NCBI GenBank assembly: GCA_036676495.1
Contig: JAKFCT010000046.1
Coordinates: 17,029 to 81,028, forward strand
Direction: 5' to 3'
DNA: 64,000 bases
Origin: Candidatus Sericytochromatia bacterium
GTDB lineage: Bacteria; Cyanobacteriota; Sericytochromatia; S15B-MN24; UBA4093
The position numbers were made by a program, and so were the translations under genes. Below are positions 3,080 to 49,519 of the stretch, piece after piece. How positions within the stretch are numbered: position 1 is the stretch's first letter; the number at the start of each line of letters is the position of its first letter. The notes below the pieces were generated by a model, which did not search any database, was not told the DNA's origin, and saw only the letters and a list, made by a program, of their open reading frames with translations.

Positions 3080-3450
3080 ATCGTCTCCTTCGCCGTCATG
3101 GTCACCATCCGGATGAGCGGGGCAGGCTCGCCCGCCTGAAAGACCCTCACCTCGGCCCGCTTCATTCGGGTTCCTGAAGCCGAGCGCTCCAGCACGTAAT
3201 CGAGCCCGGAGGTCGCATCGACTCCCGGGAAACTGCCCAACGGCTGGTCATCGTAGGCCTTGGAACGGACCTCCCGCTCCAGGACTTGCTGAGCGACCAC
3301 CAGGGCTTGCGCCTTCTGGCCGATGGCCCGGTTCGCCTGCGAGATGCCAATCCACATCTGGGCGGTCGGCACCAGCGCGATCGAGATGATGGCCAGGGCG
3401 ATCGCCACCTCGATGAGCGAGAATCCCGCTTCTGCCCGACGCCCGCTCAT
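3076..3450 (-). CDS. minor pilin (PilV-like)
   Basis: AG|FSLIEVAIALAII prepilin motif; ATG at 3450 overlaps the upstream stop. Confidence 0.8.
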   Translation of the reverse strand: MSGRRAEAGFSLIEVAIALAIISIALVPTAQMWIGISQANRAIGQKAQALVVAQQVLEREVRSKAYDDQPLGSFPGVDATSGLDYVLERSASGTRMKRAEVRVFQAGEPAPLIRMVTMTAKETM

Positions 3451-39984: not shown

Positions 39985-41544
39985 ATGCATATTACGATCG
40001 ATACCGCGAAGGTCGCCTACGGGCGCGAGCTCGCGCAACGTATCGCCAAGCCGATGCTTGAATACTTCCGCAGCCACTCGACGCTCGCCACCGAGCGCGC
40101 CGTGCTGCGGCTCTACGGCGTGGACGGAGTGGACGAGGCCGGCGTGCCCTGGCCGAACCGGGTGGTCGACGCCCTGGCCGCCCAGGACAAGCTCGCCCGG
40201 GGAGCCTCGTACTGGCTCGCGCATGCGGCGCTGTCGACCGGCAAGTCCATTCAAGAGGCGGCGATCGCCCTGGCCGAAGGCCAGGTCGACCTCGATGCCC
40301 CCATCCCCGACCGGGAGGTCACGGCCTGGGCCGACGATACCGCCGGACGCCTCCTCGACGACCTGCTTGCCAAGCGTCGTGAGCGCCAGGCCACCCGCGC
40401 GCGGCTGGGGCAAGGCCCGAAGCCCTGGCGCTACCTGATCGTCGCCACCGGCAACATCTACGAGGACGTGCCCCAGGCCGTCGCCGCCGCGCGCGCCGGA
40501 GCGGACATCATCGCCGTCATCCGCTCCACCGGGCAATCGCTGATCGACTTCGTCCCCTACGGCCACACCACCGAGGGCACCGGCGGCACCTACGCCACCG
40601 GCGCCAACTTCAAGCTGATGCGCGAAGCCCTCGACGAGGTCGGCGAGGAGTTGGGACGCTACATCCAGCTCACCAACTACGCCTCCGGCCTCTGCATGCC
40701 CGAGATCACCGCCCTGGCCGCCCAGGAAGGGCTCGACATGCTGCTCAACGACGCCATGTACGGGATCCTCTTCCGGGACATCAACATCTTCCGGACGCTT
40801 TGCGACCAGTACTTCTCGCGCCTGATCTGCGGAGCGACCGACATCATCATCAACACCGGTGAGGACAACTACCTCACCACCTCGGACGCCTTCGAGCAGG
40901 GCCACACGGTCCTGGCCAGCCAGTTCATCAACGAGAACTTCGCGCTGACGGCCGGCATGCCCCAGCGCCTGATGGGCCTCGGCCATGCCTTCGAGATGAA
41001 CCCCCGCACCCCCAACGGCCTCATGTACGAAATCGCCATGGCCCAGCTGGTGCGGCAGGTCTTCCCGGAGGCCCCGCTCAAGTACATGCCGCCGACCAAG
41101 CACATCACCGGCGACATCTTCCAGGCCCACGCCCATAACGCCCTCTTCAACCTGGTCTCGGTGCTGACCCACCAGGAAATCCACCTGATCGGCATCCTGA
41201 CCGAGGCCATCCACACCCCGTTCGCCTCGGATCGCTTCATGGCGCTCACCAACACCAACTACGTCTTCAACTACGCCCAGGACATGGGCGCCGAGCTCGA
41301 GTTCAAGGAAGACGGGATCGTCGCCAACCGGGCCCGCGAGGTCCTGGACAAGTCCATCGAACTGCTCGAGGAAGTCGAGCGCATGGGCATGGTGGAAGCC
41401 ATCGGCAAGGGCGTCTTCGCCGACGTCAAGCGCGCTCCCGACGGCGGCAAGGGCTACCTCGGCGTCTTCGCGCGCGCGGCCGATTACATGAATCCCTTTA
41501 TGACCCGCCTGGAGCGGCTGAATCACGTGGAGGCGCTGCGGTGA
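39985..41544 (+). CDS. kamD: lysine 5,6-aminomutase alpha subunit
   Basis: IVATGNIYED, AVIRSTGQSLIDFVPYG, NYASGLCMPEI, KYMPPTK. Confidence 0.95.
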   Translation: MHITIDTAKVAYGRELAQRIAKPMLEYFRSHSTLATERAVLRLYGVDGVDEAGVPWPNRVVDALAAQDKLARGASYWLAHAALSTGKSIQEAAIALAEGQVDLDAPIPDREVTAWADDTAGRLLDDLLAKRRERQATRARLGQGPKPWRYLIVATGNIYEDVPQAVAAARAGADIIAVIRSTGQSLIDFVPYGHTTEGTGGTYATGANFKLMREALDEVGEELGRYIQLTNYASGLCMPEITALAAQEGLDMLLNDAMYGILFRDINIFRTLCDQYFSRLICGATDIIINTGEDNYLTTSDAFEQGHTVLASQFINENFALTAGMPQRLMGLGHAFEMNPRTPNGLMYEIAMAQLVRQVFPEAPLKYMPPTKHITGDIFQAHAHNALFNLVSVLTHQEIHLIGILTEAIHTPFASDRFMALTNTNYVFNYAQDMGAELEFKEDGIVANRAREVLDKSIELLEEVERMGMVEAIGKGVFADVKRAPDGGKGYLGVFARAADYMNPFMTRLERLNHVEALR

Positions 41545-42311
41545 GCAACCCAACCTACCCCCGGAAACCCGACCTCACCAAGATCCGTCCCTACGGCGAC
41601 ACGCTCGACGACGGGAAGGTCCAGCTGAGCTTCACCCTGCCGGTGCCGGCAGGCCCGGAAGCCTACGAGGCCGCCAAGCGGCTCGTGCTCATGATGGGCC
41701 TCGAGGATCCGTCGATCGTCTCGATGCAGGCGGTCGACCCCACGCTGACCTACTTCATCGTCTACGGCGCCTGCACCAAGACCGTCGACTTCACCAGCAT
41801 CTACGTGCCCCGCTCCGAGTTCACCGTCATGGACATGGGTGAAGTGGACGACCTCATCGAGAAGGAATTCGGGCGCGAGCTGACGATCGTCGGCGCCTGC
41901 ACCGGCACCGACGCCCATACCGTGGGCATCGACGCCATCATGAACATGAAGGGCTTCAACGGCCACTACGGCCTGGAGCGCTACCGGATGATCAACGCCA
42001 TCAACATGGGCGCCCAGGTGCCCAACGAGACGCTGGTGGCTCGGGCGATCGCCGAAAAGGCCGACGCCATCTTGGTCTCCCAGGTGGTCACCCAGAAGAA
42101 CCTCCACATCATGACCCTCACGAACCTGATCGAGATCCTCGAGGCCGAAGGCCTGCGCGGCAAGATGGTGGTGGCGGTCGGCGGCCCCCGGATCACCCAC
42201 GACCTCGCGACCGAGCTGGGCTTCGACGCGGGCTTCAGCGTGGGCTCCTACGCCGAGGACGTCGCCAGCTTCGTGGTCCAGGAGCTGATTCGGCGCCGGG
42301 ACGCCCAGTAA
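41541..42311 (+). CDS. kamE: lysine 5,6-aminomutase beta subunit (B12-binding)
   Basis: PYGDTLDDGKVQLSFTLP; DAHTVGIDAIMNMKG (DxHxxG plus PLP Lys). Confidence 0.95.
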   Translation: MSNPTYPRKPDLTKIRPYGDTLDDGKVQLSFTLPVPAGPEAYEAAKRLVLMMGLEDPSIVSMQAVDPTLTYFIVYGACTKTVDFTSIYVPRSEFTVMDMGEVDDLIEKEFGRELTIVGACTGTDAHTVGIDAIMNMKGFNGHYGLERYRMINAINMGAQVPNETLVARAIAEKADAILVSQVVTQKNLHIMTLTNLIEILEAEGLRGKMVVAVGGPRITHDLATELGFDAGFSVGSYAEDVASFVVQELIRRRDAQ

Positions 42312-42531: not shown

Positions 42532-43413
42532 ATGCGCGTGCATCACCTCAACTGCGGAACCTGGTGCCCTCCCGCCGCCCGCCTCTTCAACGGCACCGAC
42601 GGCTACGCCTCGCCCGGAAAGCTCGTTTGCCACTGCCTGCTCATCGAATCGGACGAGGGCCTCGTCCTCGTCGACACCGGCCTGGGCGTCCAGGACCTGG
42701 AGGACCCGAGCTCCCGCATCGGAGCCGGCTGGACCGCCCTGATGCGCCCCGAGGCCGACCCGGAACAGAGCGCCCTGCGGCAAGTCGAAGAGCTCGGCTT
42801 CTACCACGACGACGTCCGGCACATCATCGTCACCCACCTGGACTTCGACCATGCCGGCGGCATCCCGGACTTCCCCGAGGCCAAGGTCCACGTCTTCGAA
42901 CCCGAGTACGAGGCCGCGATGCACCCCGACACCTTCCGGGAGCGCTTCCGCTACAAGCCCAACCAGCTCAAGCGGGCGCATGAGTGGGTCCGCTACGAAC
43001 TCGAGGGCGATCGCTGGTTCGGCTTCGACGCGGTCCGCACCCTGGGAGACCTCAACCTCGACATCCTGCTGATCCCGCTGGCCGGCCATACCCGCGGCCA
43101 CTGCGGAGTCGCCGTTCGGACGCCGGAGGGCTGGCTGCTGAACGCCGGAGACGCCTACTTCCATCACGACGAGCTCTGGAGCAAGGGAGAAGAGCCCCCC
43201 CTGGGCCTGAAGCTCTACCAGAGCGTCATGCACATGAACAAGCACAAGCGCCAGGCCAACATGGACCGCCTCCGTGCGCTCGCCCGGGAGCAATCCCGCC
43301 AGGTGAAAATCTTCAGCTCTCATGATCCGTCCGAGCTCGCGGCCTTCCACGAGCCGGAGCTGGTCTACCCGCCGATCGGGACCGAACCCCGCTTCGGGCG
43401 CAGGCCCCGATAG
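42532..43413 (+). CDS. metallo-beta-lactamase fold hydrolase
   Basis: LVDTG, THLDFDHAGG, GHTRGH, GDA, SSHD. Confidence 0.9.
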   Translation: MRVHHLNCGTWCPPAARLFNGTDGYASPGKLVCHCLLIESDEGLVLVDTGLGVQDLEDPSSRIGAGWTALMRPEADPEQSALRQVEELGFYHDDVRHIIVTHLDFDHAGGIPDFPEAKVHVFEPEYEAAMHPDTFRERFRYKPNQLKRAHEWVRYELEGDRWFGFDAVRTLGDLNLDILLIPLAGHTRGHCGVAVRTPEGWLLNAGDAYFHHDELWSKGEEPPLGLKLYQSVMHMNKHKRQANMDRLRALAREQSRQVKIFSSHDPSELAAFHEPELVYPPIGTEPRFGRRPR

Positions 43414-44297
43414 GCCTCGGAGCGCCAGATCCACCAGGGCTCGCGCGTCTCCGTGACGATGGTCTCCGGAGGGAAGAGCTTGCGCACCGCCCGGTTGAGA
43501 TCGCACCACATGAAGCGGATGCCCGAGCACGCCCGCGCCCGGGTCCGCTCCTGCAGCCTCCGGATCAGCATCGGCGCGAGTCCGCCTCCCTGCACGTCCC
43601 GGCTGAGCGCCAGCTCGTAGAGGAAGACCTCGTCGGGAGCGGAAAGCGTGGCGATGAGTACCCCCACGAGCCGCTCCCCGTCCAGCACCATGGCGCTCAC
43701 GTCCGGCAAGAAAGTCCCGAAACGGCCTTCCCGGATCTCAGCGAGCCGCGTCATGCAGGCCTCGGGGGTGGGCAGCTCGGGAAAACACAGGAACAAGCCG
43801 TCGATCGTGCCCTGGGTGCTGGCTGAAAGCAGGCTGGCCGCCTCCGGGTCGCGGGCCGGATCCCAGTCGATCAGCCGGAAGGGCTCGGGGACGTCCAGGG
43901 GCGCCGGAGGCACGCGGCAGAGCTCCTGGACCATGTCGATCCGCTCGATGCGCTGAAAGCCGTGCCGCTTCAGGCCAGGGGCCAGCACGGCCTCTCCGAA
44001 GCGCTCGGGAGCCATGAGCGCGAGGGTGCCGGCGGCTTGAAGGGGGGCGATCGCCGCCTCCAGGAGCGCTTCGCGCGCTTGCGGGTCCCGCGCGTAGAGG
44101 CCGCCCAGGATCCGGACCTCCTGACCCGGCAGGAAGGCGAAGCCACGGGGTCCCTGAGGCATGGCCCAGATTCGCAGGTGCTCGGGAGTCGCGAAGACGG
44201 CGTCGCGGAGGCCCACCACCTCGGGGGCCTCCGCGGCGAACTCCGCGAGCAAGGTTTCGACGGCCAGGAAATCCAGCGGGTGAAACGCTCGGAGCAA
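43365..44297 (-). CDS. tandem GNAT-family acyltransferase
   Basis: C-terminal motif A LYELALSRDVQGGGLAPML..NRAVRKLF; TTG start just after the upstream stop (alternative start 44315). Confidence 0.7.
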   Translation of the reverse strand: MLRAFHPLDFLAVETLLAEFAAEAPEVVGLRDAVFATPEHLRIWAMPQGPRGFAFLPGQEVRILGGLYARDPQAREALLEAAIAPLQAAGTLALMAPERFGEAVLAPGLKRHGFQRIERIDMVQELCRVPPAPLDVPEPFRLIDWDPARDPEAASLLSASTQGTIDGLFLCFPELPTPEACMTRLAEIREGRFGTFLPDVSAMVLDGERLVGVLIATLSAPDEVFLYELALSRDVQGGGLAPMLIRRLQERTRARACSGIRFMWCDLNRAVRKLFPPETIVTETREPWWIWRSEAYRGLRPKRGSVPIGG

Positions 44298-44298
44298 G

Positions 44299-45261
44299 CT
44301 ACTTCCGATCGGCAAAGGGATTGGTCCCCGGCATCATGCGCCGGGTCTGCTTACCCAGGGGCTGGGTGGACTTCGCAGGCGAGGTGAGGGAGCCGGACTT
44401 GCCGGGAGTGGCGGACTGCTTGAAGGGCGGCTCGGCGGCCGGGGCCGCGTTGGCGAAGAGCTCCGCCAGCTCGGGATAAGGAGCGAGTTGCTCGGCCAGG
44501 CGCTCGAGGTAGAACATCTTGCCGCGAAGCTTGTAGAAAGCGCTCGTGTTTCCCAGGAGATGGGAGAGCTCCCAGTCGTACTCTCCGACTCCCTTGAGGG
44601 CCCGGTAGGCCTCCTTGAGCAAGGCCTGGGTATCCTGGAAATGCGTGATCGCCAGGGAGAGGACGGGCTTGATCTCGGGGGCGTTCGCGACGGCGGTGGC
44701 GGCCCGGGAAACGCGGATCGGATCGACCGTCGTGTCCGGCAGCAACGGCTGCTCGGGGTTCAGGATGCGCTGCACGATCAGGACGGGCTCTTGGACATCC
44801 GCCAGCAGCAAACGCGCAGCCGCCGCATCCACCTGGGCTTTGGCCAGGAGGTACGGCTTGCTCTGGGTCGAGTCGGAGAACTGGACGTCCTGGGGGGCGG
44901 CCGCCGCGAGGCCGGCCCGGATGGATTCCAGGTTGGCCCGGTAATCATGGCTTTGGATCGCGACCATGGCCTTGCTTGCCTGGTAAAGCTCCTGGCTGGC
45001 CCGAAGCTTCTCGAGGAGCGGCCCATCACCCGGCGCCGGAGGCCCCGCCTCGACCTCCGCGATGAAGGGGGTCAGCTGGGAGATCATCCGGTCGTAGTAG
45101 GCAACGCGCTCGAGGTTCTGCTTCAGCAGGCCGTCGAGCTGAGCCAGACGGGCACGGGAGTCCCGCTGCACCTGCTCCTGGAGCTCCGTGAATTGCTTGC
45201 GCAGCGCCTCTTCCTCGGCGATCTCCGCGGGGCTCCGGGGCTGGGGGTTAGGGTTGGCCAT
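44299..45261 (-). CDS. hypothetical helical protein (partner B), paralog of 45556-46539
   Basis: Shared motifs EKLxASxxLY, ANLE, YLLAKAxxD, DWxL, KLxGK. Confidence 0.8.
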   Translation of the reverse strand: MANPNPQPRSPAEIAEEEALRKQFTELQEQVQRDSRARLAQLDGLLKQNLERVAYYDRMISQLTPFIAEVEAGPPAPGDGPLLEKLRASQELYQASKAMVAIQSHDYRANLESIRAGLAAAAPQDVQFSDSTQSKPYLLAKAQVDAAAARLLLADVQEPVLIVQRILNPEQPLLPDTTVDPIRVSRAATAVANAPEIKPVLSLAITHFQDTQALLKEAYRALKGVGEYDWELSHLLGNTSAFYKLRGKMFYLERLAEQLAPYPELAELFANAAPAAEPPFKQSATPGKSGSLTSPAKSTQPLGKQTRRMMPGTNPFADRK

Positions 45262-45273
45262 GTCGCTTCAGGC

Positions 45274-45528
45274 TCAGCTCCGCTGCAAGGTCAGCGAGCG
45301 CTGCTGGCGCATCCGCTCGAGCGCTTGATCGTCCACGGCCCGCTGGGCGGCGGCATCCGCACGCTGATTGTCTTGCTGATTGCCCCGCATGGCCTGGCTC
45401 ATGGAGTTCAGGCCGCTCTGGATGCCTTGCAGCATTTGAATGCCCTGCTGAAGGACCCGTGAGACCTGGTTGACGATGTTGCTGACCTGATTGACGACGT
45501 TGCCGATGGCTTTGACTGCACCGCCCAT
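45274..45528 (-). CDS. small amphipathic Q/N-rich protein B (84 aa, MGGAV start)
   Basis: AAGGAGG RBS; heptad-like hydrophobic pattern. Confidence 0.8.
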   Translation of the reverse strand: MGGAVKAIGNVVNQVSNIVNQVSRVLQQGIQMLQGIQSGLNSMSQAMRGNQQDNQRADAAAQRAVDDQALERMRQQRSLTLQRS

Positions 45529-45555
45529 GACGGACCTCCTTATCGGTTTAGGAGC

Positions 45556-46539
45556 TTATCCCTGCTTGTTGAGGAGCCGGCCCGTGCCGCCCAGGTTGCC
45601 GGTCTGACCGGGCTTGGATGGCCCCAGCTTGCCCGTCTGGTTGAGGCGGCCGGTGCCGGCGCCGGTCACCGGAGCGGGGGTCATCCAGGCATGCTCGCGC
45701 TGGTAGGGAGGGGGCTCGACGGGCTCGGGCTTCAGGAAGATCTCGGCGAGCGGCGTGCCTTCCACCTGCTCCGGCAGGCGGTCCAGCTGGAGGAGCTTGC
45801 CCTTGAGCTTGCCCCAGACCTTGTCGCCGAACTCGTGGATCAGATCGAGGGACCAGTCGAACTTCCGGATGCCGCGGACGACCTTCTTGCCTTCCTCGAC
45901 GAGGTCGCGGGACTCCTTGAAGGTCGAGAGCGCGAGGTTCATCTCGATCTTGAGCTTGGAATCCTTGTCGAGGCAATCCTTGATCTGCAGGACCAGCGGA
46001 TTGTCGACGTCCTTGCGCTGAGGGGCGAAGTACCATTCGAGGATGGACATCGGCAGGCCGTGGCCGGCCAGCTTCAGCCGCGCTCCCGCGACGTCGGTCT
46101 CGGCCTTGGCCAGCAGGTACTCGGGAGCCTCGCTGATATCCGTGAACTTGGCCTCCGGGTTGAGCTCGCCCGAGGCGATCTCGAGGTTGGCCTTCATCTC
46201 CCCCATCTGCAGCTCGACGAGGCGGATGCCCGCTTCGTAGAGGTCCAGGCTGGCCTGGAGCTTCTCGCCGATCATCTCGGCGTAAGGGGAGGGAGGAACG
46301 GACTCCATTTCCTTGAGAAGCGGCCGCAGCTCGGCCAGCTGCGCCTGCAGGAAGGCCAGGCGAGCCTGGTTCTCCTGGATCATGTCGGTCAAGGCGTTGC
46401 GGGTCTGGCCGGAGATCTGCGTCACTTTCGCGGTGATCTGCTCCAGCTCCCCGCGAAGACGCTCGGCTTCGGCCTGAAGGCGCGCCTCCTCGGCGGCTTC
46501 CTCGGGGGTCTGGATGGGGCCCGTTCCTCGGTTCTGCAT
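45556..46539 (-). CDS. hypothetical helical protein (partner A) with TGxL tail repeats
   Basis: AAAGGA RBS; N-terminal coiled coil; paralog of 44299-45261. Confidence 0.8.
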   Translation of the reverse strand: MQNRGTGPIQTPEEAAEEARLQAEAERLRGELEQITAKVTQISGQTRNALTDMIQENQARLAFLQAQLAELRPLLKEMESVPPSPYAEMIGEKLQASLDLYEAGIRLVELQMGEMKANLEIASGELNPEAKFTDISEAPEYLLAKAETDVAGARLKLAGHGLPMSILEWYFAPQRKDVDNPLVLQIKDCLDKDSKLKIEMNLALSTFKESRDLVEEGKKVVRGIRKFDWSLDLIHEFGDKVWGKLKGKLLQLDRLPEQVEGTPLAEIFLKPEPVEPPPYQREHAWMTPAPVTGAGTGRLNQTGKLGPSKPGQTGNLGGTGRLLNKQG

Positions 46540-46571
46540 GATGTGTTTTTCCTTTTTAGGTTACCAGCGCC

Positions 46572-46901
46572 TTAGAACGCCTGGCGAACGGCCTGAACGG
46601 CTGAGTTGAGCTGTTGGAAGGGTTGGGCGATGTTCTGAACCTGACCGGAGGCCCGCTGGAGGAAGCCGCCCACTTCGTTGCCGGCCGAGCGAGCGACGTT
46701 CGCCCAATCGTCCACCGAGCGCGCTTCCTGAGCCCGCTGCCGGATGCCGTCGAAGATCTTGCCGAAGTCCCCGAACATGTTGCTGAAGCTCGAGATGGCC
46801 CCCGAGATGTTGTTGACGATGTTGCCGATCGAGCTGATGGCGTTGCCGATCCCCTGGACCGCGTTGGCGACGTTGCTGATGGCGTTGACTGCTCCACCCA
46901 T
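46572..46901 (-). CDS. small amphipathic N/S/G-rich protein A (109 aa, MGGAV start)
   Basis: GAGGAGG RBS before ATG 46901; N-terminus aligns with 45274-45528. Confidence 0.8.
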   Translation of the reverse strand: MGGAVNAISNVANAVQGIGNAISSIGNIVNNISGAISSFSNMFGDFGKIFDGIRQRAQEARSVDDWANVARSAGNEVGGFLQRASGQVQNIAQPFQQLNSAVQAVRQAF

Positions 46902-47156
46902 GGTTGGCCTCCTCTCAACTTTCCCTGTTACATCAGGACGAGAATCGCGTTGCTGCTCCTCTTGTACCAAGTTTTGCCAGCCGCTCCACCGCTTTAACTG
47001 AAAAAAATGGACATCGGGGCAAGGCTTAACGAGAGCAAAGGTGGATTTAACGAAGTAAACGCTTCCTAAACAAAGGGTTCCCTTGCGGGCGCCTTTCCGG
47101 CACAATGATATCAGTAGAGCCGGCCCGGGCGCCGGCCGTGACGGGAGACCCACACC

Positions 47157-47561
47157 ATGTCTGAATACACGTCCATGATTCGCCTGCGCATGGGAGAGCA
47201 TGACGCTCACTACGCGGGCAGCCTGGTTGCAGGCGCCAAGATGCTGGAGCTGTTCGGCGACGTCGCCACGGAGCTTCTGATCCAGCTCGACGGAGACGAA
47301 GGCCTCTTCGTGGCCTATTCCAACGTCGAGTTCCTCAAGCCCGTCTACGCCGGGGATTACATCGAGGCCATCGGCCGCGTCACCAAGGTCGGCAACACCT
47401 CGCGCACCATGGAGTTCGAGGCCCGCAAGGTCATCCAGCTCTGCCGCCGGGACGGCCTCTCGGAGTCGGCCGCCGAGATCCTCGACGCTCCCGAAGTGGT
47501 CTGCCGTGCGACCGGCACCTGCGTGACCCCCAAGGACAAGCAGCGGCTCGCAGGAGTCTGA
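47157..47561 (+). CDS. kal: 3-aminobutyryl-CoA ammonia-lyase
   Basis: Hotdog fold; [32 protein letters not shown]. Confidence 0.93.
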
Positions 47562-47562
47562 G

Positions 47563-48405
47563 ATGAGCCGCAATCCGCTGATTATCACCTGCTCGCCGGT
47601 CGGCGCCGAGGTCATGAAGACGGATAACCCGGCCGCTCCCTACACTCCCGCCGAGATCGCCCAGGAGGCGATTGGCGCCGTGAAGGCCGGGGCGTCGATC
47701 GTCCACCTTCACGCCCGCGAGGAGGACGGCACCCCCAGCCAGCGGACGGCGCTCTTCGCGGAGGCCGTCCGGCTGATCCGTCGGGAAGTCGATGTCATCA
47801 TCCAGATCTCGACCGGTGGCGCCGTCACCGCCACTCCCGACGAGCGCCTGGCGCCCGTGCGAGAGCTCGATCCGGCTCCCGAGATGGCCTCCCTCACCCT
47901 GGGAACGGTCAACTTCGGCGGCGACGTCTTCTGGAACGCGCCGGACCTCATCGAGACCTTCGCCAAGGAGTTCCAGCTGCGCGGCATCAAGCCCGAGCTC
48001 GAGATCTTCGAGGCGGGCATGATGACGACCGCGCAGCGCCTCGTGAAGAAGGGGCTGCTGACGGGCCCCCTGCACTACGACTTCGTGCTGGGAGTGCCGG
48101 GAGCGCTGGCGGGGACGCCGGAGAACCTCATGTACCTGTACGGCCAGCTGCCGGAAGGGGCGACCTGGACGGTCGCGGGGATCGGGGCCGCCGAGCTGAA
48201 GCTGGGGACCATGGCGATCGCCCTGGGAGGCCATGTCCGCGTGGGCTTCGAGGACAACGTCTTCTACCGCAAGGGCGAGCTCGCCAAGAGCAACGCGCAG
48301 CTGGTCGAGCGGATCGCGCGGATCGCCGCCGAGCTGGATCGCCCCGTCGCCACCCCGGACGAGGCCCGCGCCCTGCTTTCGATGCAGCAAAGGAGCCTGG
48401 CATGA
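47563..48405 (+). CDS. kce: 3-keto-5-aminohexanoate cleavage enzyme
   Basis: GAE, HLHAR, STGGA, RVGFEDN; lies between kal and kdd. Confidence 0.93.
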   Translation: MSRNPLIITCSPVGAEVMKTDNPAAPYTPAEIAQEAIGAVKAGASIVHLHAREEDGTPSQRTALFAEAVRLIRREVDVIIQISTGGAVTATPDERLAPVRELDPAPEMASLTLGTVNFGGDVFWNAPDLIETFAKEFQLRGIKPELEIFEAGMMTTAQRLVKKGLLTGPLHYDFVLGVPGALAGTPENLMYLYGQLPEGATWTVAGIGAAELKLGTMAIALGGHVRVGFEDNVFYRKGELAKSNAQLVERIARIAAELDRPVATPDEARALLSMQQRSLA

Positions 48406-48460
48406 ATCCCATCAATAGCCGACAGGCATTCGGAGTAGATTCTCCGGCGAGGAACGAGCG

Positions 48461-49519
48461 ATGACCATGACCATGACCGCCAACCCCTTCGGAACCCACC
48501 GGGTCATCCGGCCCCAGGGAGCCCTCCCCTACTCGGGCGAGAAGCTCGACCCCAGCCTTCCGGCGCTGGACACGGAGCTGGCCATCGAGGTCGAGGCCCT
48601 GAACATCGACTCGGCCTCCTTCAACCAGCTCAAGCAAGCCGCCGACGGCGACGCCGCCAAGCTCGGAGCCATGGTCATGGAGATCGTCCGGGAGCGCGGC
48701 AAGATGCACAACCCCGTCACCGGCTCGGGCGGCGTCCTGATCGGCCGGGTTTCGGAGCGCGGAGCCAAGCGCACGGACGACGTGAAGGTGGGCGATCGCC
48801 TCGTCACCCTGATCTCGCTCACCACCACCCCCTTGCACCTGGAGTCGGTCGGTGAGGTCGACTGGAGCGCCCACCAGATCAAGGTGAAGGGCCATGCGAT
48901 CCTCTTCGAGCGCAGCCTCTACGCCAAGATCCCCACGGACCTCCCCGAGAAGCTCGCCATGTCGGTGCTGGACGTCTGCGGCGCCCCAGCCCAGACCGAA
49001 CGCCTGGTCAAGCCCGGCATGCGGGTCGTCATCCTCGGAGCCGCCGGCCGCTCGGGCCTCTTGTGCTCCTGGGTCGCCGCCAGCCAGGTCGGCCCCGAGG
49101 GCCAGGTCATCGGGATCGTCCCCAAGCTTCCCGTCCCCGGCAAAACCGTCACCCAGGCGGAGTTCATGCAGCGCTTCCCGCTGCCCATGACCGTCGTCGA
49201 GGGCGACGCCCTCGATCCGGTCGCCACTTACGAGCAGGTCGGCGCCTTGACCGACGGCCAGTACGCGGATCTGGTCATCAACTGCGTGAACGTCCCCAAC
49301 ACCGAGATGGCGAGCATCCTGGCCTGCCGGAACGGTGGGAAGGTGTACTTCTTCAGCATGGCCACCTCCTTCACGGCGGCCGCCCTCGGCGCCGAGAGCG
49401 TCGGACAGGATATCGAGCTGCTGATCGGCAACGGCTACGCCAAGGGCCATGCCGAGATGAGCCTCGACCTCGTGCGCAAGCACCCCGCCCTGCGCGAGCT
49501 CCTGGAGGCCCTGGAGTAA
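48461..49519 (+). CDS. kdd: L-erythro-3,5-diaminohexanoate dehydrogenase
   Basis: FGTHRVI, LNIDSASF, RGKMHNPVTGSGG, FFSMATSFTAAALGAE. Confidence 0.93.
   Translation: MTMTMTANPFGTHRVIRPQGALPYSGEKLDPSLPALDTELAIEVEALNIDSASFNQLKQAADGDAAKLGAMVMEIVRERGKMHNPVTGSGGVLIGRVSERGAKRTDDVKVGDRLVTLISLTTTPLHLESVGEVDWSAHQIKVKGHAILFERSLYAKIPTDLPEKLAMSVLDVCGAPAQTERLVKPGMRVVILGAAGRSGLLCSWVAASQVGPEGQVIGIVPKLPVPGKTVTQAEFMQRFPLPMTVVEGDALDPVATYEQVGALTDGQYADLVINCVNVPNTEMASILACRNGGKVYFFSMATSFTAAALGAESVGQDIELLIGNGYAKGHAEMSLDLVRKHPALRELLEALE

Follow-up and report, generated by a model that had tools for sequence, protein, structure and literature searches.

What is encoded by five closely packed genes that interrupt a lysine-fermentation cluster in a relative of the cyanobacteria, and what does the acyltransferase gene at the end of the block act on? 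The genes lie on the minus strand of a 64,000-nucleotide (nt) stretch of DNA from a Candidatus Sericytochromatia bacterium (assembly GCA_036676495.1, contig JAKFCT010000046.1, positions 17,029 to 81,028), referred to here as the window. A preliminary description made from the sequence alone placed at 43365-46901 a small protein and a larger partner (small A and partner A), a second such pair (small B and partner B) and a GNAT, and all of these open reading frames (ORFs) are present in that order. Genome comparison indicates that this module is conserved in one order of Candidatus Sericytochromatia, which are non-photosynthetic relatives of cyanobacteria, and that the small-partner pair is duplicated in tandem in the window's genus. 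The gene set appears to be previously undescribed; a search of the literature on Sericytochromatia with flagella and on N-terminal glycine with GNAT found no description of it. Its GNAT probably modifies the first glycine of the small proteins, which begin Met-Gly-Gly (MGG). The genes of the module are as follows.

46572-46901, minus strand: small A, 109 amino acids, begins MGGAVNAISNVAN
45556-46539, minus strand: partner A, 327 amino acids
45274-45528, minus strand: small B, 84 amino acids, begins MGGAVKAIGNVVN
44299-45261, minus strand: partner B, 320 amino acids, paralog of partner A
43365-44315, minus strand: tandem GNAT acyltransferase, 316 amino acids from TTG 44315 or 310 amino acids from TTG 44297

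The spacers between the genes are 32, 27 and 12 nt in succession from small A to partner B. The GNAT gene has two possible starts, TTG 44315, which overlaps partner B by 17 nt, and TTG 44297, which lies 1 nt past the partner B TAG. The second (310 amino acids) appears likelier because orthologs and a 310-amino-acid database copy start MLRPF/LRAF, and translation of the GNAT is apparently coupled to that of the last partner gene. For small A the ribosome-binding site is strong (GAGAGGAGG, 6 nt ahead of the ATG); for small B it is AAGGAGG, also before the ATG.

Recurrence of the same gene order in distant genomes places the block far beyond chance. A partner profile built from 27 homologs was searched in 27 genomes of the order and in 20 genomes of other families of the class. 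The profile matched 27/27 of the former and 0/20 of the latter; most genomes of the order carry several copies and the window's genome carries six. The family is otherwise rare, with 12 proteins including the query in a collection of 5.8 billion proteins and 28 representative clusters among 1.84 billion. Forty loci were retrieved and scored with custom profiles for partner, small ORF and GNAT adjacency. For 23 of the 26 close partner genes, a small ORF that starts with MGG is found about 270-680 nt upstream and in the same orientation. Two of the remaining three (L042 and L053) are at contig ends that fall inside the small ORF, and in the third (L046, genome G015) the small ORF begins MFGLGN. 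None of the 18 more distant partner paralogs adjoins an MGG gene, and several of them adjoin other small helical ORFs. The preliminary description had taken partner homologs that lack adjacent MGG proteins as a sign against cognate pairing; such homologs were seen among the remote paralogs only. In three genomes of genus g7, a lone partner gene and GNAT gene follow a row of three to five MGG genes.

The GNAT linkage proposed at the outset was also borne out. GNAT homologs were found in 18/27 genomes of the order, and in 18/18 of these the best GNAT match is downstream of, and in the same orientation as, a partner match, at 18-400 nt between the ends of the profile matches (about 390 nt in G020, judged from search coordinates only). 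A genome usually has a single tandem GNAT, which ends the module. The GNAT and MGG genes co-occur among the 27 genomes as follows, and since these genomes are related the counts are not independent, which tempers their weight for a GNAT that acts on the MGG proteins.

GNAT present, MGG present: 16/27 genomes
GNAT present, MGG not found: 2/27 genomes (in G013 the small ORF is cut by a contig end; in G015 it begins MFGLGN)
GNAT not found, MGG present: 1/27 genomes (G021, an assembly of 730 contigs)
GNAT and MGG both not found: 8/27 genomes (seven sister-genus genomes and one 64%-complete genome)

The small proteins are poorly conserved apart from their first residues. In 23/23 aligned small proteins, M1, G2 and G3 are the sole invariant columns, the search pattern having required M-G and having allowed G, S, A or N at position 3, and the mean column identity is 21%. 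Ile8 is present in 18/23. Codon 2 is GGT in 18 genes and GGC in 5, and codon 3 is GGA in 11, GGT in 10 and GGC in 2; because the glycine codons vary synonymously, the MGG start is conserved at the protein level. The start codons are secure since a GGAGG-like site shortly precedes the ATG in 23/23, with a clear AGGAGG/GGAGG-type core in 20. An invariant MGG (23/23) would fit a GNAT acting on Gly2. A candidate third MGG protein on contig C52 was dropped as it sits within a 375-amino-acid ORF.

The small proteins range from about 60 to 160 amino acids across lineages, and after MGG the family has a helix with the 3-4 hydrophobic spacing of heptads that spans about 46-50 residues. In small A, MGG is followed by a heptad amphipathic helix (about residues 8-53), a polar middle stretch and a helix at the C-terminus; its orthologs are 74% (G001) and 91% (G002) identical. 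Small B is basic (isoelectric point (pI) 11.5) with a Q/N-rich tail, and resembles small A mainly at the N-terminus (BLAST E 1e-5, out of register). The C-terminal parts are mutually unrelated and may be Q/N-rich and charged, glycine-zipper-like (L032 and L043), Cys-rich (7 Cys in each of L037 and L045) or LysM-like (one protein, under the Pfam cut-off, E 0.0012, 19.2 versus 20.9 bits). N-domain hydropathy reaches 1.76-1.96 in six lineages. Small A and small B have no Pfam or NCBIfam match over cut-off, and none to WXG100 in Pfam with the E threshold relaxed to 10. No W-x-G motif came to notice when their translations were read, for which no pattern search was made, and T3SS_needle_F of Pfam matched none of four MGG proteins scanned. 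In PHROGs, small A weakly resembled tape-measure and tail proteins (E 2.6e-4 to 6e-3); this was attributed to a common Gly/Ala/Ser-rich helical composition rather than to homology, and phage genes are not nearby.

The assignment of the last gene as a GNAT was upheld by Pfam (Acetyltransf_1, 27.0 bits versus a cut-off of 20.7, residues 204-280). Its AlphaFold2 model (predicted local distance difference test score (pLDDT) 87.7, predicted template modelling score 0.82) has two alpha/beta halves and so is a tandem GNAT. The N-terminal half is a degenerate GNAT-like domain, and the C-terminal half carries the Pfam match, the acyl-CoA motif QGGGLA (VQGGGLA) and an invariant Glu (E234). Among 15 aligned GNAT sequences G245 is invariant and L246 and A247 are nearly so. 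Foldseek returned 337 matches at E <= 0.001, the listed ones being GNAT-type acetyltransferases. Over the whole chain the model matches MAB_4324 (Foldseek E 1.6e-12; VIA-align Z 18.7 over 272 residues), MshD (Z 17.6 over 273 residues) and VipF (Z 15.0). The C-terminal domain superposes on Ard1 (Z 14.6), RimI (Z 14.3), NatC (Z 13.9) and NatA (Z 13.3), and polyamine and aminoglycoside acetyltransferases fit it equally well (Z 13-15). Neither the matches listed by Foldseek nor the best 50 of VIA-align include N-myristoyltransferase. The fold matches favour acetyl-CoA enzymes.

Partners A and B are clear paralogs as first described (32% identity over 257 amino acids, E 9e-28), and every motif listed for them then is found in their alignment. 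The family consists of soluble, all-helical proteins of about 300 amino acids that are acidic in the close subfamily. Partner A is soluble and acidic (pI 5.3). Its residues 12-123 form a long helical hairpin and residues 139-258 a helical bundle, and the disordered tail contains four TGxL motifs; in its AlphaFold2 model (pLDDT 85.8) the hairpin is exposed, with 55-residue helices. TGxL motifs occur at 2.10 per 100 amino acids in the last 60 residues of partners versus 0.03 elsewhere. The repeats (TGRL, TGKL and TGPL) are concentrated together with LP[YF] in the disordered tails, for example at 45556-45700 in the window, and KGTGKL and KGTGDL repeats are also present in the atypical small ORF of G015 (L046:5116-5562). 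The T-x-x-L spacing of the tails may resemble that of FHA-domain ligands.

The preliminary description recognised no family for the partners, and this agrees with the searches made. The partners have no Pfam or NCBIfam match over cut-off, and when the 27 partner homologs were compared with family profiles no family matched more than three members. Foldseek with the partner model gave 0 matches at E <= 0.001, the best being an F-BAR domain (E 0.019, template modelling score 0.22). VIA-align of the partner reached Z up to 11, within the helical-hairpin background. The hairpin alone superposes on CHMP4B (Z 10.6, 79 residues) and Snf7 (Z 10.1, 77 residues), also within the helical background, and no Pfam match of the partners to ESCRT-III, PspA or Vipp1 was found. 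Matches of the partner profile to sequences in the Protein Data Bank, such as apolipoprotein A-IV (E 1.3e-5), were set aside as compositional coiled-coil matches. Database homologs are annotated no further than 'hypothetical protein'. Thus, from sequences and models, no relatives of the small proteins and partners, two of the three components, could be detected in known families or among solved folds. Complex prediction for partner A (residues 1-290) with small A gave 0.45, 0.65 and 0.01, and an unrelated control reached 0.56, so these scores weigh on neither side of the question of binding.

The regular heptads of about 46 residues directly after MGG, the long exposed hairpin of the partner and the multi-copy paralogy of both proteins would also suit a coiled-coil structural assembly such as a cytoskeleton, coat or filament. 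N-terminal acetylation would then stabilise the first helix or head-to-tail contacts, as it does in tropomyosin. Such an assembly is quite improbable, as the highly variable and sometimes Cys-rich or very hydrophobic small proteins suit a conserved lattice poorly and no known cytoskeletal family was matched.

The account preferred here, with a probability somewhat short of even, is that Met1 is removed, that the GNAT acetylates Gly2 and that the partner acts as chaperone for the amphipathic helix at the N-terminus of a protein that is membrane-active or exported. Methionine aminopeptidase would take off Met1; this step is proposed because a glycine at the second position favours removal of the initiator methionine, which is an established rule. 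The C-terminal GNAT domain would then move an acyl group, most likely acetyl, from acyl-CoA onto Gly2's alpha-amino group. This assignment is drawn from the invariant N-terminus, the gene linkage and the co-occurrence of GNAT and MGG genes. One GNAT would serve the adjacent pair as well as pairs encoded further off. The exposed two-helix hairpin of the partner would hold the amphipathic N-terminal helix and keep the small protein soluble. The 3-4 hydrophobic spacing of the N-domains, the soluble acidic partner and the exposed hairpin are consistent with such a role. The disordered tail, with its LP[YF] and TGxL repeats, might dock the pair onto another machine, and the small protein that results, its N-terminal helix capped, might be membrane-active or exported.

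Several observations weigh against this account. The folds that match the GNAT over its whole chain are those of acetyltransferases acting on small molecules or lysine (MshD, glucosamine N-acetyltransferase and VipF), and G015 has a partner and a GNAT, yet a small ORF that begins MFGLGN. Three MGG pairs are present in G021, where a GNAT was not found in the 730 contigs, and five further MGG-partner pairs (L036-L039 and L045) have no GNAT in the stretches seen, most of which are short or limited by contig ends. Pair A in the window is itself 1.2 kb from the GNAT. Because of this distance and the pairs lacking a GNAT, the account has to assume that the enzyme acts at a distance. In G016, a second GNAT match (C68) has an in-frame TGA. 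The small proteins of the window are just moderately hydrophobic (maximum 1.0 and 0.8), which makes membrane activity less apparent here than in the other lineages.

Some of the same observations would be expected if the GNAT acted on a small molecule, a lysine or the partner, with MGG serving another purpose such as recognition by the partner or by another enzyme. A non-protein substrate is possible because the best whole-chain fold matches are small-molecule or lysine acetyltransferases, and this explanation would also accommodate the GNAT retained in G015 beside a non-MGG small ORF and the MGG pairs away from any GNAT. It is rather unlikely, given that the GNAT lies downstream of the partner in 18/18 genomes with start and stop codons that abut in the window, that GNAT and MGG genes co-occur in 16 genomes and are both missing in 8, and that nothing but the N-terminus is invariant in the proposed substrates.

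The variability of the C-terminal parts on a conserved N-domain, including the proteins with 7 Cys, the glycine-zipper tails and the sub-cut-off LysM stretch, raises the alternative that the small proteins are secreted and diversifying, similar to bacteriocins or effectors. The MGG N-domain would then serve trafficking or recognition, the partner would be an export adaptor or chaperone, for example of flagellar type, and the GNAT would mature or neutralise the protein before export. The arrays of three to five MGG genes ahead of one partner and GNAT in genus g7 are in keeping with this, as are two full-length FlhA genes in flagellar clusters of the window's genome (C38:27430-29388 and C45:58017-60008; FHIPEP family), the distant partner paralog beside an FlhB paralog and the remote paralogs beside an 81-amino-acid ORF with a sub-cut-off type III secretion system (T3SS) needle match (E 0.0054) and a YjfB motility gene. 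Against these stands the finding that no transporter or secretion gene is conserved in or beside the module in the loci examined. FlhA is present in 45/47 genomes of the class, and its distribution therefore does not follow that of the module. The LysM and needle matches are sub-threshold, and Pfam and NCBIfam gave the partners and small proteins no match to known flagellar or secretion chaperone or substrate families, an outcome that also bears on the preliminary description, which had named such a match as telling against it. For the flagellar or WXG100-like export put forward there, this outcome speaks neither for nor against. Secretion of this kind is an unlikely alternative.

A wider version of the preferred acylation account carries a similarly limited probability. 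According to it, the tandem GNAT would acylate Gly2 of a diversifying membrane-active family, the helical chaperone would deliver the products and the TGxL tail would dock to an export or membrane machine, possibly one of two flagellar-type export gates.

The tight small-large gene pairs in several copies, and the amphipathic or hydrophobic N-domains, could also belong to a toxin-antitoxin or toxin-immunity system in which the small protein is a membrane toxin neutralised by the partner. This is very improbable. The partner is a conserved soluble protein of about 300 amino acids in all 27 genomes of the order, the module loci examined lack mobile-element hallmarks in their surroundings, and PADLOC gave no significant match (best LeoB, E 0.0025, and LmuB, E 0.0081, on coiled-coil stretches; none for the other three proteins).

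How does the module with a GNAT acting on Gly2 compare with known systems? The nearest functional analogy is the mycobacterial pair EsxA (ESAT-6)/EsxB, in which EsxA is N-terminally acetylated by the N-acetyltransferase Emp1 (PMC10653941). As in the module, a helical protein of about 100 amino acids is encoded beside a partner, and it undergoes the GNAT-type N-terminal acetylation that is proposed here. The two systems differ in that they have no sequence or family relation, small A and small B lacking a WXG100 match. The module's partner is a protein of about 300 amino acids rather than a second 100-amino-acid protein, its acetyltransferase is a tandem GNAT in the same operon, and type VII secretion genes were not seen in the module loci examined. 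Acetylation of the EsxA N-terminus reportedly affects partner release and membrane lysis.

The tandem GNATs MshD, MAB_4324, VipF and glucosamine N-acetyltransferase share with the module enzyme two GNAT-like domains in a chain of about 300 amino acids (Foldseek E 1.6e-12 to 3e-11; the VIA-align Z values of 18.7, 17.6 and 15.0 are those given above). Just one of the two domains of MshD is active; in the module GNAT the Pfam match and acyl-CoA motif are in the C-terminal domain only. Sequence identity is 10-18% (15-18% for MshD), and membership in the MshD enzyme family is not claimed. The known substrates of these enzymes (a mycothiol precursor, glucosamine and host proteins) have no counterpart in the gene context of the module, and none of the enzymes is encoded behind an MGG protein family.

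In eukaryotes, Met removal bares Gly2 for acylation by N-myristoyltransferase, a two-lobed enzyme of GNAT fold, and the acyl group aids N-terminal membrane binding. The logic proposed for the module would be analogous, with Gly2 exposed and then acylated. However, N-myristoyltransferase substrates prefer Ser or Thr at position 6, whereas Ser is found there in just 1/23 MGG proteins (K 9, N 6, G 6, D 1, S 1) against Gly2 in 23/23, and the enzyme is absent from the matches listed for the module GNAT. The PE/PPE pairs and the T3SS needle or translocator proteins with their chaperone or tip proteins resemble the module in being tandem pairs of a helical protein of about 80-110 amino acids with a larger helical protein, and in that a genome has several such pairs, which diverge as paralogs. 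Superposition of the partner hairpin on IpaB gives Z 9.9 and on XaxAB Z 9.4, in the range expected for any long helical hairpin. These pairs differ from the module in that there is no sequence match and no secretion apparatus genes are conserved beside it.

The interpretation given in the preliminary description is, as a whole, partly supported. N-terminal acylation of proteins is a major targeting signal in eukaryotes. To our knowledge, bacterial N-terminal acylation is known for few substrates only, and its enzymes are usually encoded elsewhere in the genome. The module would tie an acyltransferase genetically to a proposed substrate family in which N-terminal Met-Gly-Gly is the sole invariant feature, and this tie makes possible a simple direct test of a dedicated bacterial N-terminal modification. 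The wider acylation account, if true, would make the module a bacterial operon-encoded system for modification of N-terminal glycine with a new class of helical chaperone, and a prokaryotic counterpart of the eukaryotic N-terminal acylation used for targeting. Because two components have no known relatives and the partner is present in every genome of the order examined, the module likely marks a lineage-specific cell biology of these little-known non-photosynthetic sister groups of cyanobacteria.

The surroundings of the module in the window are given by the following features.

46902-47156, minus strand: non-coding region upstream of the operon, common to the divergent thioesterase gene
42532-43413, plus strand: metallo-beta-lactamase-fold gene, converges with the GNAT gene
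39985-42311: lysine 5,6-aminomutase subunits, lysine-fermentation flank
47563-48405: BKACE, lysine-fermentation flank

The block was first described as an interruption of the lysine-fermentation cluster, and comparison with a sister genome confirms this. The gap from the aminomutase beta subunit to BKACE is 75 nt in G004 (C30:170320-171968) versus 5.25 kb in the window. Judged from this difference, the module, the metallo-beta-lactamase-fold gene and the thioesterase gene are an insertion into the lysine cluster in the window's genus, and the lysine-fermentation surroundings are an insertion site only. The neighbours of the module in other families are quite different from those in the window. 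The split lysine-fermentation genes (39985-42311 and 47157-49519) include the lysine 5,6-aminomutase subunits, BKACE and a dehydrogenase-like gene. The convergent GNAT and metallo-beta-lactamase-fold genes overlap by 49 nt (43365-43413).

Alignment of the region upstream of the operon (46902-47156) with sister genomes G001 and G002 revealed the conserved blocks GTTAAATCC, CCGATGTCCATTTTTTT and TTGGTACAAGAGGAGCAGCA, and the GC content upstream of small A drops to 0.60-0.61. A sigma-70 consensus was looked for upstream of small A and none was found. A sigma-54 reading of the conserved TTGGTAC-N-GCA block was rejected because the 92%-complete genome has no Sigma54_DBD and the motif is absent upstream of other MGG genes. 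Neither a sigma-54 DNA-binding domain nor a PspA/IM30 (Vipp1) family gene was found in this assembly (G000). In 12/26 MGG upstream regions a loosely defined bipartite motif is found about 80-160 nt ahead of the start codon, with GT[GT]AAA as its first part and, after a further 20-30 nt, ..AT[AG]A as its second; the window copy is at about 47010-47050. The motif occurs in 0.4% of random 220-nt genome pieces, and this enrichment is inflated because the pattern was set after the sequences had been viewed. An RNA library contains contigs of a 90-97% identical relative that cover small B plus the 5' part of partner B, or small A plus the 5' part of partner A, which is only a weak hint of module expression. 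The GNAT and flanks are uncovered by these contigs, which cannot demonstrate absence.

Further observations concern the remote partner paralogs. The 81-amino-acid helical ORF beside some of them is found at L048 (G008:C11; 3903-8499), L047:3379-3621 and L052:2093-2338 and 3129-3374. Its best Pfam match is the T3SS needle family (17.3 bits versus a cut-off of 29.4). In G008 it is close to the YjfB motility gene, a cNMP-binding gene and a PilM/PilN-like gene, and G001 carries two identical copies of it in tandem. A basic subfamily of partner paralogs (L018 and L020-L023; genera g7 and g11) has a pI of 9.5-9.7, tails ending GLFG and no MGG gene, and is also adjoined by a helical ORF of about 100 amino acids. 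The basic paralog of L018 has a 700-amino-acid neighbour with a weak NHL match, which recurs with a 362-amino-acid gene in L020-L023; a candidate assignment of the 362-amino-acid neighbour as a flagellar rod or hook protein was dropped as it had no Pfam match. A partner paralog at L059:5975-9564 (G000:C45), not typed by pI or tail, adjoins two NHL-repeat proteins. At L062:4990-7188 (G000:C42), a 313-amino-acid partner paralog and a second FlhB-family gene (Bac_export_2, E 1.9e-114) converge and are 12 nt apart. The window's genome has stand-alone genes that match the FlhA C-terminal domain only (C38:14629-15312 and C47:3164-3892), and FHIPEP matches number 7-12 per genome in family f3. At L016:1661-2129 (G010:C96), two fragments that match the start and end of the partner profile lie just upstream of an MGG gene and look like the remnant of a degraded extra partner copy.

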